Assembly (NCBI GenBank): GCA_019244185.1
Contig: JAFATB010000006.1
Coordinates: forward strand, 32,001-96,000
Direction of reading: 5' to 3'
DNA: 64,000 bases
From: Acidobacteriota bacterium
GTDB lineage: Bacteria; Acidobacteriota; Thermoanaerobaculia; Gp7-AA8
A program made the position numbers and the translations under genes. This document shows positions 6,574 to 14,401 of the stretch, piece after piece. Numbering within the stretch: position 1 is the stretch's first letter; every line of letters begins with the position of its first letter. Under the pieces are notes generated by a model. That model saw nothing but the letters and a program-made list of their open reading frames with translations. It made no database searches and had not been told where the DNA came from.

Positions 6574-7062
6574 ATGAACAACCGCGAATACTTTCTCAAG
6601 CGCTGGGACGGCGAGCAGCGCGCATTCTCCGAAGTGCTGCGCGCCGTGCCGAACGATCAGCTGTCGTACACGCCGCACGAGCGGTCGACGAAGGCGGGCG
6701 ACCTCGCCTGGCAGATCGCACTCGAGCAGCGTCTGCTCATCGATCTGCTCGACAAGCAGAAGATGGTGTGGGAGTCGCTGCCGCGGCCGGAATCGATCGA
6801 CGGCATCGTCGCCGCGTACGACGAGGCCACGAACACGCTGCGCGACAAGCTGAAACACTTCGACGATTCGAAGTGGGAACTGCCGGCGAAGTTCATGTTC
6901 GGCGAGCACGTCGCCGGCGAGTCGACCGTGCAGGACTTCGCGTGGGGCTTCCTCTTCGACCTCGTGCATCACCGCGGACAGCTCACGGCGTACTTGCGTC
7001 CGATGGGCGCGAAGGTGCCGTCGATCTACGGTCCGTCCGGGGACTCGGGCGCCGGCAGTTAG
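6574..7062 (+). CDS. DinB/YfiT family protein
   Basis: C-terminal HHRGQLTAYLRPMGAKVPSIYGPS motif. Confidence 0.85.
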   Translation: MNNREYFLKRWDGEQRAFSEVLRAVPNDQLSYTPHERSTKAGDLAWQIALEQRLLIDLLDKQKMVWESLPRPESIDGIVAAYDEATNTLRDKLKHFDDSKWELPAKFMFGEHVAGESTVQDFAWGFLFDLVHHRGQLTAYLRPMGAKVPSIYGPSGDSGAGS

Positions 7063-7927: not shown

Positions 7928-9727
7928 TCAGACGAGTTTCGCTTCGAGCTCCGCCCACCGCGCGTACAGCCGCTCGACCTCCGCGTGCGCCGCCTGCAGC
8001 TCCGCGTAGCGCGTCTGCAGCGCGCCGGCGTCGGCGGCGATCGACGGATCTTCCGCGCGCCGCTGCGCTTCTTCGACGCGCGCTTCGGCGGCGAGCACCG
8101 TTTCCTCCATCGCATCGAACTCGCGCTGTTCGAGGTACGAGAGGCGCTTCGTCTTCGGCGCGGACGGCTTCGGCGCCGCCGTTGACGGTGTTAACGATGC
8201 GGCGGGAGTGTCGCGCTGCGCGGCCTCCCACTGCGGGAAATCGGCGAAGAACTCCGCGTTGCCGCGGCCGTCGAGCGCGAGAAGGCGCGTCGACACGCGG
8301 TCGAGCAAGTAACGGTCGTGCGTCACGAGGACGAGCGCGCCGGGAAAATCGAGCAGCGATTCCTCGAGCACGTCGAGCGTCGGGATGTCGAGATCGTTCG
8401 TCGGCTCGTCCATCACGAGGAGGTCCGCCGGCTGCAGCATCAGTCGCGCGAGCACGATGCGTGCTTTCTCGCCGCCGGAGAGCCGCGACACCGCGGTCTC
8501 GAGCTGCTCGCTGCGAAAGAGAAACCGCTTCGCCCAGCCGGCGACGTGAATGGGTCGGTCGCGATAGATGACCGAGTCGCCTTCCGGTGCGAGCGCGCGT
8601 TTCAGCGTGACATTCGGATCGAGGCTCTCGCGGTTCTGTTCAAAGTACACGACGCGCAGGCCGTCGGCGCGCTCGATGCTGCCCGCGTCGGGCGCGAGCG
8701 TGCCGACGATCATCCGCAGCAGCGTCGTCTTGCCGGAACCGTTCGGGCCGAGGATGCCGAGGCGCGCGCCGGGCGTGAGGAGCAGATCGAGGTTGCGCAC
8801 GATCGGCTGGTCGCCCATCGTCTTCGTGAGCCCGCGCGCGGACCAGAGGCGTTTCGTCTTGCGCTGCGAGGCGGTGAAGTCGATCTCGGTGTTGAACGAC
8901 TGCGCACGGTCGCGCCCTTCGGCCAGCTCGTCGATCAGCTTCTCCGCGTTCTGGATGCGCGCTTTCGCTTTCGTCGTGCGCGCTTTCGCACCGCGGCGCA
9001 GCCACTCCATCTCGCGCCGCACGAGGTTCGCGAGCGTCTCCTGATACGCGGCCTCGTTGCGCAGCACCTCGTCGCGCTTCTCGAGGAGATCGCTGTAGGT
9101 GCCGTCAACCGCGAGCAGGCCGCCGGCGTACGCGCGATTCAGCTCGAGCATCCGCTTGGTCACGTTCTCGAGAAAGTAGCGGTCGTGGCTGACGACGACG
9201 AACGCCTTCGGATCGCTGCCGAGGAGCGATTCGAGCCAGAGGATGGCATCAACGTCGAGATGGTTCGTCGGCTCATCGAGGAGGAGCACGTCCGGCTCGC
9301 GCACGAGCTCGCGCGCGATGGCGAGGCGTTTGCGCCAGCCGCCGGAGAGCGTCTCCGTGCGGATCGCGCGATCGGTGAAACCGGCGCGGCCGAGCGCGAG
9401 CGCGACGCGCGCGAATTTCTCGTGCTCGTCGAGACTCGTGTCCGATGACAGCGCGTCGAGCAGCACGTCTTCCGCGGAACGTCCCGGCGCGAACACCGGA
9501 TCCTGCGGCACGTAGCCGACGCGCACGCCCTTGCGCAGCGCGCGCGTGCCGGAGTCGGCGTCTTCCGCGCCCGCGAGGATCTTCAGCAGCGTCGACTTCC
9601 CCGAGCCGTTCGGGCCGACGAGTCCGACGTGATCGCCTTCGAAGAGCGTGAAGGAGAGATTCTCGAAGAGCGGCCGCGCGCCGTAGGCTTTCGTGAGACC
9701 GTCGGCGGAAAGAAGAACGGGCGGCAT
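7928..9727 (-). CDS. uup: ABC-F family ATPase, Uup-like
   Basis: Start at ATG 9727 (MPPVLLSADGLTKAYG). Two ABC domains (GPNGSGKST / LSGGW / DEPTNHLD and GPNGSGKTT / LSGGE / DEPTNDLD), arm region WLRRGAKARTTK, C-terminal KRLSYLEQRE...LYARWAELE coiled coil. Confidence 0.9.
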   Translation of the reverse strand: MPPVLLSADGLTKAYGARPLFENLSFTLFEGDHVGLVGPNGSGKSTLLKILAGAEDADSGTRALRKGVRVGYVPQDPVFAPGRSAEDVLLDALSSDTSLDEHEKFARVALALGRAGFTDRAIRTETLSGGWRKRLAIARELVREPDVLLLDEPTNHLDVDAILWLESLLGSDPKAFVVVSHDRYFLENVTKRMLELNRAYAGGLLAVDGTYSDLLEKRDEVLRNEAAYQETLANLVRREMEWLRRGAKARTTKAKARIQNAEKLIDELAEGRDRAQSFNTEIDFTASQRKTKRLWSARGLTKTMGDQPIVRNLDLLLTPGARLGILGPNGSGKTTLLRMIVGTLAPDAGSIERADGLRVVYFEQNRESLDPNVTLKRALAPEGDSVIYRDRPIHVAGWAKRFLFRSEQLETAVSRLSGGEKARIVLARLMLQPADLLVMDEPTNDLDIPTLDVLEESLLDFPGALVLVTHDRYLLDRVSTRLLALDGRGNAEFFADFPQWEAAQRDTPAASLTPSTAAPKPSAPKTKRLSYLEQREFDAMEETVLAAEARVEEAQRRAEDPSIAADAGALQTRYAELQAAHAEVERLYARWAELEAKLV

Positions 9728-9781
9728 GGAAGGCGGAAGATACCAGCGAACGAAACCGGCGCAGCCCGTGTTTAGGCGTGC

Positions 9782-10399
9782 ATGAAGAACTCCTGGACCG
9801 GCGGAATGGCCGCCACGCTCGAGGAGAACGGCGAGGCGACTCTGGCCGTGGCGGTGCATCGCTGCGAGCCCGGCGCGCTGGAGCGGCTGATCGACCGCTT
9901 CGAAGGCGCGCTGTACGGCTACGCGTACGGCATCCTGCAGAACACCTTCGACGCGCAGGAAGTCGTACAGGACGCGATGCTGCGCGCGCACCGGGCGCTG
10001 ACGCGGCAATACGACGAGGCGCGCTGCGCGGCGCTGGCGCTCCGGCCGTGGCTGTTCAAGATGGTGCGCAACCTCTGTCTCAACAAGCGCCGCTCGAAAA
10101 CGCGCGCGCTCGAACAGCCGCTCGCGTCGTTCGACGACGACCGCCTCGGGCCGTTCGTCCGCGAGCACGGCTCCGAGCTCGAGCGGCGCGAGGACGCGGA
10201 GCTGCTGCGCGGCGCGATGGCGCGCCTCCCGGTCGAGGCGCGCGAGCTCATCGTGCTGCGATTCATGGAAGAGATGTCGTACGCCGACATCGCGAAGACC
10301 GTCGGAGCGTCCGAAGCGGCGCTGCGCGGCAAGGTGTTCCGCTCGCTCAAGCTCCTGCGGGACGCACTGGAAGAAAAAGGGGTGGCCCATGCGGTGTAG
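9782..10399 (+). CDS. ECF (sigma-70 group 4) RNA polymerase sigma factor
   Basis: Region 2: DAQEVVQDAML...WLFKMVRNLCLNKRR. Region 4: LPVEARELIVLRFMEEMSYADIA...GKVFRSLKLLR. Confidence 0.92.
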   Translation: MKNSWTGGMAATLEENGEATLAVAVHRCEPGALERLIDRFEGALYGYAYGILQNTFDAQEVVQDAMLRAHRALTRQYDEARCAALALRPWLFKMVRNLCLNKRRSKTRALEQPLASFDDDRLGPFVREHGSELERREDAELLRGAMARLPVEARELIVLRFMEEMSYADIAKTVGASEAALRGKVFRSLKLLRDALEEKGVAHAV

Positions 10400-11255
10400 A
10401 TCGGTTCTGACTCGAGTCGATGCGCTGCGCACCGGCGAGCTTCCGCCGGACGAACGCGGCGAAGTGGAGACGCACATGGAGACGTGCCGCAGCTGCAATG
10501 CGTCGGTGCACGACGTCGGTACGCTCGCGCATACCATCAAGGCGATCGCGCCAGCGCCGCCGCGCTCGTGCCGCGACGCGCTCGCGGATTCGTACGATCG
10601 CGTCGGCGAAGTGTGGGTGGCGTTCTCCGACAGCGGCCTGCGCATGCTCCATCGCGGCGGCAGCTTCGAGGAGTTCCGCGCGCTGCACGCCGAGCGCACC
10701 GGACGCACGCTCAAGTCCGCGACGCTTTCCGACAAGCTGCGCAAGCAGGTCGTCGCCGCGACGAGCGGCGAAGGCGTGGACAAGCCGCAGGTCGACTGGC
10801 GCGCGGACGCGACGCCGCTCGAGCGCGCCGTGCTGGAGACGCTGACGCGGATTCCGCGCGGCGAGGTGCGCACGTATGAATGGGTCGCGCGGCAGGTCGG
10901 ACGGCCGCGTGCGACGCGCGCCGTCGGCTCGATCTGCGCGAAGAACTCGGTGCCGTTCGTCGTGCCGTGCCACCGCGTCGTGCCGTCGACCGGCGGCGTC
11001 GGTCAGTACGCGTTCGGCAGCGCGGTGAAGCGCGACCTGCTGCGGCGCGAAGGCGTCGACGTCGACGCGCTCGACTCGCTCGCGAAACAGCGCGTCCGCT
11101 ACATCGGCTCGCGCACCACGAAGATCGTCTGCTTCCCCACGTGCAAAGACGCGCGGCGCATCCGCGAGGACAACCGCGTCCCTTTTCACGCGGCCGGCGA
11201 AGCGCTGGAGAAAGGATTCCGGCCATGTCTGCGATGCAAGCCGTTCGCGGCCTGA
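10389..11255 (+). CDS. Fusion of a zf-HC2/ZAS anti-sigma domain, a methylated-DNA-protein-cysteine methyltransferase (Ogt) and a C-terminal Ada metal-binding domain
   Basis: N-terminus C..GEL....E.HMETCRSC (HxxxCxxC). Middle IPRGEVRTY..VA..VG.P.ATRAVG and the VPCHRVV active site. C-terminus KIVCFPTC...GFRPCLRC with all four Ada Cys. Overlaps the sigma gene by 11 bp. Confidence 0.88.
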   Translation: MRCRSVLTRVDALRTGELPPDERGEVETHMETCRSCNASVHDVGTLAHTIKAIAPAPPRSCRDALADSYDRVGEVWVAFSDSGLRMLHRGGSFEEFRALHAERTGRTLKSATLSDKLRKQVVAATSGEGVDKPQVDWRADATPLERAVLETLTRIPRGEVRTYEWVARQVGRPRATRAVGSICAKNSVPFVVPCHRVVPSTGGVGQYAFGSAVKRDLLRREGVDVDALDSLAKQRVRYIGSRTTKIVCFPTCKDARRIREDNRVPFHAAGEALEKGFRPCLRCKPFAA

Positions 11256-11866
11256 GCGTTCCCGAGATCCACGCGGTGTCGCGGCCCGCGCGCGCCTTCA
11301 CCGGCGACTTCTACTTCACGCACCGCGAAGGCGCGCGCACGTGGTTCGCCCTCGGCGACGTCGCGGGCAAAGGTCTGCCCGCCGCGATCGTGATGGCGAT
11401 GATCCAGGAGGAGCTCGAGCTGCGCATCGCGTCGTGCGCGAGCGCCGCGTGCGATCCGGCGACAACCACGCGCCGCCTCCACGAGTTCCTCGCGCCGCTG
11501 CTCCCGCGCAATCGCTTCGCCACCGCCGTCCTCGGCCATCTCGACGACGACGGCACGCTGACGATCGTGAACGCCGGCCACTGTCCGCCGCTCCTCGCCC
11601 GCGCCGACGGCCGCGTCGAGGAGCTCGGCTCCACCGGCCCGCTCCTCGGCATCCTTCCCTGCCCGCGCTGGAGCTCCGTCAAACGCCGCCTCGAACCCGG
11701 CGACGCGCTCGTGCTCTACAGCGATGGCGTGACCGAGGCCACGATCGATGGCGGCGAGGAGCTCGGGGTGGAGGGTTTGCGCGAGCGCGTCGCGCGTCGC
11801 GAGAACCTGCTCGACGGACTCGACACGCACGACGACGTGACGCTCGTCGTCGTGCGACGGCCGTGA
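11234..11866 (+). CDS. Stand-alone PP2C/SpoIIE-type Ser/Thr phosphatase
   Basis: GDFY, LGDVAGKG, NAGH, LYSDGVTEA, DDVT motifs. Start is ATG 11234 or 11225, overlapping the upstream gene. Confidence 0.85.
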   Translation: MQAVRGLSVPEIHAVSRPARAFTGDFYFTHREGARTWFALGDVAGKGLPAAIVMAMIQEELELRIASCASAACDPATTTRRLHEFLAPLLPRNRFATAVLGHLDDDGTLTIVNAGHCPPLLARADGRVEELGSTGPLLGILPCPRWSSVKRRLEPGDALVLYSDGVTEATIDGGEELGVEGLRERVARRENLLDGLDTHDDVTLVVVRRP

Positions 11867-11869
11867 GCA

Positions 11870-14401
11870 TCAGTCATAGACGAACCGTTCGTCGTCATTC
11901 GGCGTCGCACCCTTACGAACGATGACGGCGAACGGATCGACCTGCGCCAGTCCGCCGGCGAGTTGCCAAAGCGTGATGAAGAAAGCGCGACCCAGTTCCT
12001 CGCGGCGCAGCGGCGTCGCCGCAAGAATGTTGCTCGCTTCAGCCATGAGCTTTCGCTGTTGCACCGCAATGCTCTGAACGGCGTCATCGATCGCGCGGCC
12101 GGAGAGGTTGATCTGACGCATCGACTTCAATTGCCCAAGCATCCGCTCGAACGCTAGAACGACGCGCAGCGCATTGGAGACGGGGAGACGCTGCGCAGCG
12201 CCCACCTGGACCTGCGTTTTCTGATCGTCGGCACGGAAGTTCGCGTTGTCGAAGACGACCGTGGTACCGCCCGGCACCAGTCCAGTCTCACGGACGTGTT
12301 TCCATCGCAGGAACAGCAGTCCGTTGCGATCGCGGATCGTAAAGGGATTCGGCGAATCGGAGAGATATAGCGCGGTCAGGTTCTCGACGAACTGCTCCGA
12401 TGCGGTATCGACGCTTTGATTCAGGATCGTTTCGAGCTCACTTTCGCTGAAATCCAGAACGGCGCTCGCGACGAGATCTCCAAACGGCTGCTTCGATGCC
12501 GCATTGACGACCAGTTCCGTGAGCGCGGTCGTCGGTCCGGCGAGAACGCCCAGTGCGATCATCTGTTTTTCCCAGTCGGAGAGCTGCGTGCGTGTCGGCG
12601 GCGGCGTCCACCGGATGGATGCGTCCAAGCTGACATGGTCGCTGACGCGTGGGTCGCGTAGCTTATCCGCGGACGTGACGACCGCAAGCACACGCGTATC
12701 GGCCAGGAACGTGACGCTGCGCAGCGCACGCCAGCTCTTTGACCACGCTTCGATCGAAGTCCGCACGCCGAGATTGAGATCGCCCGTTGCCGTGACCTCG
12801 TAATCCCAGTCCTGCTGCAACAGTGTGCCGACTCCCGCGTTGAGACCGAACGCGGAGATGTTCAGCGACGTCTCGATACGAAGTCCACCGGAACCGGACC
12901 ACGTGGCGTCGTTCAGCGTGACACCCGCATCACCCTGCCGCGCCAGCGCGAGCGCCTCGGTGAAGTCGCCGTGCACACATTTGCGGAAGGCCGGCAGCGC
13001 AGGATCGATGGACAGATCGAGCGCCGTGGTGCGGGTATCGAAGCGCGATCGTTTATGGGCGAGCTCGATCCCGATCTTCACCTCCGCCGCGGCTTTCACG
13101 GCAGCGTTCACGCGCTCGAGCGCGCGTTGGTATCGGACGACGAGTTCCTTTACCGCATTCAACAGCGGATTGAGGTGGTGCTGGAAGTCATCGACGAGCG
13201 CGCCCGTCCGAGCGTCGATCGCATTCGTCAGCGCTTCTTTCAGTTTCGCCTTGAGATCGACACTTACACCGATCCGCGCGAGCCACTGTTGGAGCTGCGT
13301 GGTGACACTCTGGCTGTTCAGCAAGTGATTGACGGTCGCGGAGAGCTGCTGATCGAACAGCTGGTGCAGATCGCCGAAGGTCGTGAGATCGTTCTCGATC
13401 AGCTTCACGAGCGGAGCGAGCGGTGTGGTGATCTGAGAGACGACCGCGCTCGCAACTTTGTCGATGCCGGTGATTGTGACGCCGACACCGGCTTTCAGCG
13501 CGATGCCACGCGAGGACTCGCGCACTTGTACGAGTCGGACGCGAACACGGTTCGTTCCCTTGTCACGCGTCAGAAGAATGTTGAAGCTGCCGTTCACTTC
13601 CGCGTTGAAGTCGAGCGAAGCGGCAATCTTCGCCTCGGCGGTGATCGGCGCCGCAGCGAGACCGAGGGTCTTTTCGCTGACCTCGCCCGTCATCACGACC
13701 GTCTTTCCGAACGAGAGACCGCCCGACACGGCGATCGAGCCGGTGTTGTGCAGACGCACGACCTGCCCGTCTCGGAGGTGGGCGGCGTCGTACGGCAACT
13801 TGAATGCACGCACGTCATCGATGAGCGCTGTGAGCGCGGAGTCGGAGACCGCGTGCTTGAAGTAGTTGCCAACGGTGACCGACGCGTTCGCGCCGAATGC
13901 CGCCTTTCCGCTGACAACACCAATGGGGAACGACGGCACATTTCCGAGCGCGGAGACGGCGCCGTCGATCACGAACGAAAGGAATGCCTCGCTGTCTTTC
14001 TCGTACGTGATCGCGCCGTCGTCGAACAGATCGCCATCGTCGTCGCCCGCTACGGTCGCGGACGCGTTCGCGCCGAGCTCGATCGCAACGGCGTTGACGT
14101 TCAGCGTGTTGTCCACGGCGACCGGCCAGGAGAGCTTCTGCTTCGCTGCCGCACCAACGTTGCCGAGGAGGAACGTGAGCGCGGTACGGTTGTTTGCAAT
14201 GAAACTCTGAATTTGCTGCGCGTTGAGATTGAGCCGCGCAATCGCATCGGCGACCGGACCCTGCGCATTCGGATTGGCCTGGTAGGCCACCAATGCATCG
14301 AGAATGGCTTGAGGACTGTTCAGCGCCCGCAGTTCGTCCAGCAGTTTCGGGATGTCCTGGAGAAGCTGTACCGCACGGGTTCCTTGCTTGAGGATTTCCA
14401 T
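11870..14401 (-). CDS. Large hypothetical protein (843 aa), no family recognised
   Basis: Long ORF with normal amino-acid composition, SD GGAGG upstream, no signal peptide. More A/T-ending codons than its neighbours. Confidence 0.8.
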   Translation of the reverse strand: MEILKQGTRAVQLLQDIPKLLDELRALNSPQAILDALVAYQANPNAQGPVADAIARLNLNAQQIQSFIANNRTALTFLLGNVGAAAKQKLSWPVAVDNTLNVNAVAIELGANASATVAGDDDGDLFDDGAITYEKDSEAFLSFVIDGAVSALGNVPSFPIGVVSGKAAFGANASVTVGNYFKHAVSDSALTALIDDVRAFKLPYDAAHLRDGQVVRLHNTGSIAVSGGLSFGKTVVMTGEVSEKTLGLAAAPITAEAKIAASLDFNAEVNGSFNILLTRDKGTNRVRVRLVQVRESSRGIALKAGVGVTITGIDKVASAVVSQITTPLAPLVKLIENDLTTFGDLHQLFDQQLSATVNHLLNSQSVTTQLQQWLARIGVSVDLKAKLKEALTNAIDARTGALVDDFQHHLNPLLNAVKELVVRYQRALERVNAAVKAAAEVKIGIELAHKRSRFDTRTTALDLSIDPALPAFRKCVHGDFTEALALARQGDAGVTLNDATWSGSGGLRIETSLNISAFGLNAGVGTLLQQDWDYEVTATGDLNLGVRTSIEAWSKSWRALRSVTFLADTRVLAVVTSADKLRDPRVSDHVSLDASIRWTPPPTRTQLSDWEKQMIALGVLAGPTTALTELVVNAASKQPFGDLVASAVLDFSESELETILNQSVDTASEQFVENLTALYLSDSPNPFTIRDRNGLLFLRWKHVRETGLVPGGTTVVFDNANFRADDQKTQVQVGAAQRLPVSNALRVVLAFERMLGQLKSMRQINLSGRAIDDAVQSIAVQQRKLMAEASNILAATPLRREELGRAFFITLWQLAGGLAQVDPFAVIVRKGATPNDDERFVYD

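Follow-up and report, generated by a model that had tools for sequence, protein, structure and literature searches.

An ECF σ factor operon of Acidobacteriota with a predicted zinc anti-sigma, DNA alkyltransferase and Ada-domain fusion protein

Organization of the operon and its products

The stretch of DNA analysed here, 64,000 nucleotides from an Acidobacteriota bacterium (contig JAFATB010000006.1; hereafter the window), harbors at positions 9782-11866 of its forward strand three co-oriented, overlapping genes. They encode a σ factor of the extracytoplasmic function (ECF) type, a fusion protein that joins a zinc anti-sigma (ZAS) domain, an O6-alkylguanine-DNA alkyltransferase (Ogt) and an Ada-type zinc domain in one polypeptide, and a protein phosphatase of the PP2C family. 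This layout, first read in an initial annotation of the sequence, is borne out by the open reading frame (ORF) calls, and the fusion protein is predicted to act as the anti-σ factor of its ECF neighbour. The features are as follows.

9747..9772 (+): predicted ECF-type promoter, CGAACG-N15-GTGTT, an exact match in the window
9782..10399 (+): ECF (group IV) σ factor, 205 aa, by Pfam and TIGR02937
10389..11255 (+): fusion protein, 288 aa, with three Pfam domains
10389..10583 (+): fusion residues 1-65, zinc anti-sigma (ZAS) domain, by zf-HC2; ligands C3, H29, C33 and C36
10584..11060 (+): fusion residues 66-224, O6-alkylguanine-DNA alkyltransferase, by DNA_binding_1 and TIGR00589; acceptor C194 in PCHR
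11094..11252 (+): fusion residues 236-288, Ada-type Cys4 zinc domain, by Ada_Zn_binding; C248, C252, C280 and C283
11225..11866 (+): PP2C (SpoIIE/RsbU-type) phosphatase, 213 aa, without a sensor domain, by SpoIIE

The σ factor, whose start codon is backed by N-terminal conservation in at least 30 related loci, matches Sigma70_r2 at residues 36-108 (1.3e-11) and Sigma70_r4_2 at residues 140-192 (7.8e-11) in Pfam, and scores 81.8 bits against TIGR02937 (cut-off 42.9). With regions 2 and 4 only, no region 3 and a length of 205 aa, it has the make-up of an ECF (group IV) σ factor. Its gene overlaps that of the fusion by 11 nt. The phosphatase gene lies inside the ORF 10880..11866, and reading of the sequence places its start at ATG 11225 or 11234, because conservation among the homologues sets in at about position 12-14; if the start is at 11225, the gene overlaps that of the fusion by 31 nt. 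Neither a σ70-type promoter nor an intrinsic terminator was found in 9500-12300. The stored gene call of the window fusion (P0001, 259 aa) begins at M30 and thereby loses the ZAS histidine and C3, as against 287-294 aa for the conserved form of the protein. This call is an annotation pitfall, which conceals the anti-σ motif.

All three domains proposed for the fusion score above the Pfam gathering thresholds in a hidden Markov model (HMM) scan: zf-HC2 at residues 3-36 (28.5 bits, cut-off 22.2), DNA_binding_1 at residues 144-223 (3.2e-28) and Ada_Zn_binding at residues 238-285 (7.9e-12; 45.5 bits, cut-off 23). The last profile is matched at positions 18-64 of 65 only, and the AlphaFold2 (AF2) model folds residues 236-288 with a predicted local distance difference test (pLDDT) score of about 97. 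The alkyltransferase is also recognized by TIGR00589 (88.4 bits, cut-off 46.4). The motifs on which the initial annotation had relied are present in full: the HxxxCxxC motif as H29-METC33-RSC36, the intact PCHR active site as P193-C194-H195-R196, and the four Ada cysteines as C248-FPT-C252 and RP-C280-LR-C283. Its further statements that the protein has no transmembrane (TM) helix, that Ogt precedes the Ada zinc domain and that the AraC helix-turn-helix (HTH) is absent stand as well, the highest Kyte-Doolittle 19-residue mean being 0.78 and Pfam giving no match to HTH_AraC or HTH_18. Against the Ada equivalog NF011964 the fusion reaches 99.2 bits, far from the cut-off of 345, which leaves it outside the Ada-type regulators.

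The residues expected to bind zinc or to accept alkyl groups are strictly conserved. C3, H29, C33, C36, C194 and the four Ada cysteines show no change across 23 close homologues (identity 67-88%), and the same ZAS ligands, PCHR and Ada cysteine motifs are invariant in 34 ZAS-type homologues derived from related loci. In 101 family members, with and without a ZAS domain and from several phyla, the Ogt residues Y163, R177, N186, C194, H195, R196, Y207 and E221 do not vary, and neither do C248, C252, C280 and C283. All eight Ogt catalytic residues, R177 being the Arg finger, are identical to those of human O6-alkylguanine-DNA alkyltransferase (AGT) in a phmmer alignment; against E. coli Ada-C (1sfe), aligned with the same program, six of the eight are identical, the exceptions being N186, which stands opposite a Lys, and E221. 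Fusion residues 240-286 align to residues 30-75 of N-Ada (1adn, phmmer, 7.5e-7), and C248 therefore occupies the position of Ada Cys38, the methylphosphotriester acceptor.

The AF2 model of the fusion, computed from a 101-sequence alignment, has a pLDDT of 93.9 and a predicted template modelling (pTM) score of 0.76; it replaced a run with the 23 close homologues alone, which gave a pLDDT of 65.7. Helices at residues 3-14, 20-32 and 34-53 are followed by an extended segment, and a lower-confidence linker (mean pLDDT 68 in block 51-60) leads to a two-domain Ogt fold and a small C-terminal zinc-domain fold. The modelled Ogt part has the N-terminal alpha/beta domain and the C-terminal HTH domain of the alkyltransferases, and Foldseek aligns the model to E. 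coli Ada-C (1sfe; TMt 0.75, 168 columns, E 4.3e-10) and to the methylated N-Ada/DNA complex (1u8b; 70 columns, 37% identity).

The σ factor and its fusion partner across phyla

A word-indexed protein search with the fusion gave 2480 matches, and the best 120 of them, which were inspected, are all 259-294 aa long and all carry PF01035 and PF02805; those that are named are proteins from Thermoanaerobaculia metagenome-assembled genomes, annotated merely as methyltransferases. An exhaustive search of representative proteins gave 33711 matches at E <= 1e-3, of which 98 reached E <= 1e-30, and Pfam was run on 80 of the best 150. zf-HC2 (E <= 0.01) was detected in 15 of these 80 representatives, four of which join ZAS and Ogt without an Ada domain, and most of the others carry Ogt and Ada_Zn behind an N-terminal extension of 20-50 aa that is not a ZAS domain. 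Three have the classic Ada order of Ada_Zn, AraC HTH and Ogt (P0224, P0231 and P0261). Two candidate architectures were also seen: P0206 (287 aa) joins a fragment of Sigma70_r2 to Ogt and Ada_Zn, and P0256 (453 aa) joins an S-adenosylmethionine (SAM)-methyltransferase domain to the same pair.

A contig search with a 12-sequence alignment as the query returned at least 600 stretches with at least 590 relatives, and the best 80 loci (L001-L080) are considered here. They cover at least five phyla (Acidobacteriota, Gemmatimonadota, Chloroflexota, Actinomycetota and Dormibacterota), and the related genomes among them are not independent samples. The ZAS-type loci, L001-L036, are full-length matches to the fusion and belong mostly to Thermoanaerobaculia or other Acidobacteriota, together with one Longimicrobiales and one Candidatus Dormibacteria. 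The distant, non-ZAS loci, L037-L080 (n=44), match from about fusion residue 40-72 on; they come from Chloroflexota, Actinomycetota (Pseudonocardia, Nonomuraea, Rubrobacter and Actinomycetospora), Dormibacterota, Limnocylindrales and one Terriglobales.

In every one of the 80 loci, the gene immediately preceding that of the fusion homologue, and co-oriented with it, is an ECF gene. It was found by tblastn with the window σ factor in 79 of them and by reading of the ORF 5339..5899 in L079. When the 81 upstream ORFs (80 loci and the window) were scanned with Pfam, Sigma70_r4_2 was detected in 80 and Sigma70_r2 in 78, and at least three of the ORFs scanned are partial (L014 and L033, at a contig start, and L076, taken from the tblastn match onward). 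The 11-nt overlap of the σ and fusion genes is kept in all 36 ZAS-type loci, as in the window, and so is the full-length N-terminus of the fusion; of the 43 non-ZAS loci with a placeable start, 37 have a 4-nt overlap, and L076 has no start codon near the σ stop. Because the loci were chosen by similarity to the fusion and not to the σ factor, this strict coupling across phyla is strong evidence of a functional pair. As regards the conservation of the three-gene set, which the initial annotation had left to a neighbourhood survey, the ECF and fusion genes stay together in 80/80 loci, but the PP2C gene is not a general member, with 0/44 in the distant loci.

The genes downstream of the module show no conserved family: EamA, the commonest, was found by Pfam in 7 of 61 downstream ORFs, among which there are also one AlkZ-like protein and one Ogt. 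These 61 come from the 68 loci with a downstream ORF called, seven ORFs of more than about 1,300 aa having been left out. Since the downstream genes are not conserved, the module appears to be self-contained.

The prediction of a complex between the two proteins points in the same direction as the linkage of their genes. The σ factor (34-row alignment) was modelled with fusion residues 1-72 (34 rows) in three runs and with three controls, and the interface score ipSAE was 0.73, 0.72 and 0.73, while the best control reached 0.00. The pLDDT of the partner was 83-84, and contacts agreed by at least 90% between runs; in a calibration that is rough for custom alignments, 116 of 157 solved complexes and 2 of 215 mismatched pairs attained the mark applied. 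On the σ side the modelled interface comprises residues 33-70 (region 2), 120-146 and 157-192 (region 4), and on the fusion side residues 3-17 and 35-65. Fusion residues 1-72 are thus modelled between σ regions 2 and 4, in what is a textbook class I anti-σ sandwich. The class I anti-sigma domain (ASD) has four helices, and the AF2 model of the fusion N-terminus three helices and an extended segment. As in ZAS proteins, HxxxCxxC is accompanied by an upstream Cys ligand, and the gene adjoins and overlaps that of the ECF σ factor. The modelling advised in the initial annotation was therefore favourable, as far as a model goes, and its claim that the fusion holds the neighbouring σ factor gains weight from the linkage in all 80 loci, the constant 11-nt overlap and the contrast with the controls: it is very likely that the σ factor of the operon has the fusion as its cognate anti-σ factor.

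The 44 distant loci make up a sister family (for instance L048, 5974-6720, and L079, 5896-6678), in which the ECF gene is followed by a gene for a 20-50-aa non-ZAS peptide joined to Ogt and Ada_Zn. From its sequences, this family probably has the layout of the ECF groups ECF122 and ECF203. The N-terminal peptides have no Cys/His zinc motif and share the motif L..LA.L...AP..L..RV. In hhalign they match ASD residues 41-65 weakly (probability 33.6%, P 4.4e-4), residues which in the complex model contact σ region 2 and, in part, region 4, and the peptide may be a minimal σ-binding remnant of the anti-σ domain. Two Nonomuraea loci (L059, 1670-2364, and L070, 1714-2408) have, besides the Ogt-linked ECF gene, a second one some 3.7 kb farther upstream, and it precedes an ORF weakly similar to fusion residues 1-68, that is, to a ZAS-like anti-σ factor.

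Promoter, σ N-terminus and phosphatase gene

The pattern CGAACG-N15-GTGTT stands upstream of the σ gene in 31 of 31 regions compared (the window and 30 loci), and in 28 of them GTGTT ends 9 nt before the σ ATG, the spacing found in the window. A position weight matrix (PWM) built from these regions also detects it in three loci outside the building set, L011, L034 and L036. Altogether the promoter precedes the σ gene in 34 of 35 assessable loci, L035 having a one-mismatch version; L014 and L033 offer no upstream sequence for the check. The matrix detects one site per locus, and 20 shuffles of the window gave 0-1 matches. With up to one mismatch allowed, chance alone would give 2.16 matches to the pattern in 64 kb, and the weight of the promoter therefore comes from its conservation and fixed position and not from the match in the window. 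Its short, fixed distance to the ATG suggests a leaderless or near-leaderless mRNA, and the pattern looks like that of an autoregulated ECF operon. The ECF122 motif CTCAC/CGTCTAC is not in the window, CTCAC..CGTC occurs in 0 of the 44 distant loci, and GAAC..GT of the window type gives there only scattered matches, far from the start.

The first nine residues of the σ factor, MKNSWTGGE (9782..9808), are nearly invariant in the Thermoanaerobaculia clade and are not present in L034-L036. They mostly co-occur with the PP2C gene, and L024 and L031 keep them without an adjacent PP2C. Judged from its sequence, the motif could be a phosphosite, a degron, or a constraint of leaderless translation. In L011 the σ homologue (2115-2141) has an in-frame stop near codon 9, likely a sequencing error, given the very low coverage of the contig.

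The phosphatase contains a SpoIIE domain at residues 36-212 (Pfam, 4.2e-39), its nearest solved relative is Rv1364c of M. tuberculosis (2.3e-11), and the metal-binding motifs GDFY, GDVAGKG, SDG and DDVT are visible in its sequence. A homologue lies just downstream of the fusion gene, often overlapping it, in 29 of the 33 ZAS-type loci that could be assessed, L011, L028 and L034 ending too early to judge; the 29 include L006 and L025, which are cut by contig ends, L019, a fragment, and L032, which is short. None was found within at least 3.5 kb in L024, L031, L035 and L036, nor in any of the 44 distant loci. This distribution, frequent in the close loci but nil in the distant ones, makes it an accessory gene, which on sequence grounds is a clade-specific add-on of Thermoanaerobaculia. 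The initial annotation had suggested that the PP2C could add a partner-switching layer, which is not supported: with no STAS protein and no RsbW/HATPase-type kinase among the 55 window ORFs scanned (a heuristic ORF list), and with the phosphatase itself missing from 4/33 close and 44/44 distant loci, the combination of PP2C, STAS and serine-kinase anti-σ factor that characterizes RsbU/RsbV/RsbW-type switching is incomplete here.

A candidate alkylation switch and its alternatives

The model proposed for the operon takes the repair enzyme itself as the sensor. In the resting state, the ZAS domain of the fusion would hold the co-translated ECF σ factor between its regions 2 and 4. Upon alkylation damage, the Ogt domain would take up the alkyl group of O6-alkylguanine at C194, and the Ada zinc domain the methyl group of methylphosphotriesters at C248, either of which would alkylate the fusion irreversibly. 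The alkylated protein would be destabilised or conformationally changed, and probably degraded, so that the σ factor is no longer held. Once free, the σ factor would transcribe its own leaderless operon from CGAACG-N15-GTGTT, replenishing the repair protein that has been consumed, and after clearance of the damage newly made fusion would sequester the σ factor again. We infer the binding, the alkylation trigger, the proteolytic route and any regulon beyond the operon, as well as every other step past the intact active sites.

The choice of sensor follows from the pattern of conservation. While the whole family keeps the Ogt and Ada residues unchanged, the 44 distant loci lack the ZAS ligands, for which reason the shared candidate sensor is the Ogt/Ada part and not the ZAS zinc site; the comparison suggests that the common signal input lies in the repair domains, and gives indirect support to the repair enzyme being the sensor. 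Alkylation of the active site has been described to destabilise alkyltransferases through the interface of their N- and C-terminal domains, with degradation in vivo (PMC4605297). In the fusion, the anti-σ segment is joined directly to the N-terminal domain of Ogt, and a route from alkylation through destabilisation and proteolysis to σ release would therefore be the most economical. Alkylation of the fusion's own repair cysteines as the signal that releases the σ factor is the best-supported mechanism, and the chances that it is correct seem to us about even. It is somewhat more doubtful, if still a serious possibility, that these loci represent an adaptive response without an Ada-type regulator, widespread over at least five phyla, in which a suicide repair protein is the anti-σ factor and one σ factor is freed per repair event, and which would also explain ECF122 and ECF203 by means of an ASD remnant. 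If so, the system would work as a stoichiometric damage counter and a replenishment homeostat.

Several observations weigh against the model. A search by pattern and by PWM at threshold, over the 64 kb of the window and 348 kb of loci, gave no second copy of the promoter of the kind expected for a wider regulon, and scans of the window and the loci showed no genes of the alkA, alkB or aidB type. The conserved PP2C hints, on sequence evidence, at a phosphorylation input that the model leaves unexplained, and the favourable complex score may be due in part to the likeness of the pair to solved ECF/ZAS complexes. Finally, the first ZAS ligand is a Cys, as in the redox-sensing RsrA, and the zinc site could itself be the sensor in this clade.

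This last point can be developed into an explanation of its own, in which oxidants or soft electrophiles hit the Zn-thiolates of an RsrA-like ZAS domain and Ogt and Ada are cargo, made in step with the σ factor. The Cys...HxxxCxxC ligand pattern of the fusion is shared by RsrA, and C3, H29, C33 and C36 are invariant in the 34 ZAS-type sequences; there is also a weak match to TIGR03988 (antisig_RsrA), of 19.2 bits, but its cut-off of 62.5 is not reached. Many ZAS domains, however, are not redox sensors, and since the 44 distant loci keep both the σ linkage and Ogt-Ada without any Cys/His zinc motif, such sensing would not be the common mechanism, and we consider it rather unlikely to be what governs the operon. 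A different proposal would keep the methylated fusion on σ region 4 as an Ada-like co-activator, recruiting the holoenzyme to damaged or target DNA. E. coli Ada contacts σ70 region 4. The modelled interface likewise takes in region 4 (157-192), and methylated E. coli Ada is described as an activator of its own gene (PMC6818145). Nevertheless, the modelled ASD covers region 2 (33-70) too, in the classic inhibitory sandwich, and the fusion has no sequence-specific HTH, no AraC domain in Pfam and an NF011964 score of 99 bits vs 345, which makes the proposal improbable.

Alkylation could also be irrelevant to signalling, if an unlinked Ser/Thr kinase and the PP2C of the operon acted on the σ factor or the fusion to control release by phosphorylation. 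The phosphatase, with its metal-binding motifs, is found in 29/33 assessable ZAS-type loci, this clade also conserves the σ N-terminus, which includes Ser4 and Thr6, and control of ECF σ factors by phosphorylation is on record, ECF43 being an example in a 2022 review (PMC8999054). Such control has little probability here, as L024, L031, L035, L036 and the 44 distant loci do without the PP2C gene, L024 and L031 retain the σ N-terminal motif with no PP2C adjacent, and the scan of 55 window ORFs turned up no kinase, STAS or RsbW. A further account, finally, would regard the fusion as a repair enzyme only, with a structural or vestigial ZAS-like N-terminus and a σ gene that is adjacent for mere co-expression. 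The public annotation as plain methyltransferases and the stored gene call from M30, which lacks the motif, would agree with it; yet neither the ZAS ligands nor the 11-nt overlap vary, the N-terminus is full-length in all 36 ZAS-type loci, and the complex model scored 0.73 vs 0.00, which makes this account the most improbable of those weighed here.

Relation to known systems and neighbouring genes

E. coli Ada is described in PMC6818145 as repair protein, damage sensor and autoinducer in one, and the proposed suicide repair protein resembles it in being both the sensor and the object of positive autoregulation. The two also share a Cys4 zinc domain of the methylphosphotriester type and an O6-alkylguanine alkyltransferase in a single polypeptide. 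Unlike E. coli Ada, the fusion has Ogt before Ada-Zn and no AraC HTH, its Ada-Zn match lacks profile positions 1-17, and its predicted output is a dedicated ECF σ factor sequestered by ZAS, instead of direct binding to promoters. If the model is true, this would be a second, independent design of the adaptive response to alkylation, with the Ada/Ogt sensor parts wired to a σ factor and not to an AraC HTH.

Known pairs of ECF σ factors and class I ZAS proteins include RsrA-SigR, ChrR-SigE and RslA-SigL. The operon resembles them in the HxxxCxxC motif with its upstream ligand, in an anti-σ gene that lies directly downstream of the ECF gene and overlaps it, in a predicted autoregulated promoter of the GAAC...GT type, and in the modelled sandwich of regions 2 and 4. 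It departs from them in having soluble suicide DNA-repair domains as the predicted sensor or output part, where they have TM/periplasmic, cupin or stand-alone redox modules, and in that its model has just three clear helices and an extended segment. A true model would add to the inputs of ECF σ factors the covalent, irreversible consumption of an anti-σ factor by its own enzymatic reaction, and would offer synthetic biology a compact, orthogonal switch proportional to the dose of damage. The phosphatase belongs to the PP2C fold family of RsbU/SpoIIE and Rv1364c, and differs from these in having no N-terminal sensor and, among the window ORFs scanned, no STAS or RsbW partner.

ECF122 was reportedly first defined by Huang et al. 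in 2015. In the group descriptions of Casas-Pastor et al. 2021 (PMC7826278), ECF122 has a 6-O-methylguanine DNA methyltransferase at +1 and 'no putative AS factors', that is, anti-σ factors, and ECF203 has a methyltransferase at +1, also with Ada_Zn_binding, and 'lacks any obvious regulator'; these entries give both groups as restricted to Actinobacteria, without putative anti-σ factors and without characterised members. In the 2022 review (PMC8999054), the mechanism of ECF122 is listed as unknown, and ECF203 is assigned to transcriptional control by TetR. The window shares with these groups the O6-methylguanine methyltransferase at +1 of the ECF gene, and among the 44 distant loci there are Actinomycetota that have exactly this layout. 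It differs in being Acidobacteriota-like, with an explicit ZAS domain, a PP2C gene and another promoter, and the nearest named relatives of its fusion are from Thermoanaerobaculia, not Actinobacteria; this separation from ECF122 and ECF203 was drawn from the descriptions of taxon and promoter.

The initial annotation knew of no characterised system with this architecture. That is upheld in so far as no description of a ZAS-Ogt-Ada fusion, or of Ogt or Ada as an anti-σ factor, was found in the limited literature collection searched, but the linkage of ECF genes to Ogt, with or without Ada_Zn, is already catalogued in ECF122 and ECF203. What is known, then, is the gene linkage, and what is new is the predicted anti-σ nature of the repair protein, its ZAS form, the promoter and the extent across phyla. 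If true, the model would provide a testable mechanism for ECF122 and ECF203, both of which are now listed without a regulator.

As for the neighbouring genes, an 843-aa ORF (11870..14401, -), for which no Pfam family and, in the 80 loci, no tblastn match was found, converges on the PP2C stop with a gap of 3 nt; it lies in the block of lowest GC content of the window (0.619, vs 0.64-0.71 in the other blocks). Farther upstream of the operon there is a DinB/YfiT-family protein (6574..7062, +). An ABC-F ATPase (7928..9730, -) is divergent from the σ gene and begins about 55 nt from its ATG, which confines the σ promoter to a very short intergenic region. By tblastn against the 80 loci, this ABC-F neighbour is common only to L001-L009 and L011.

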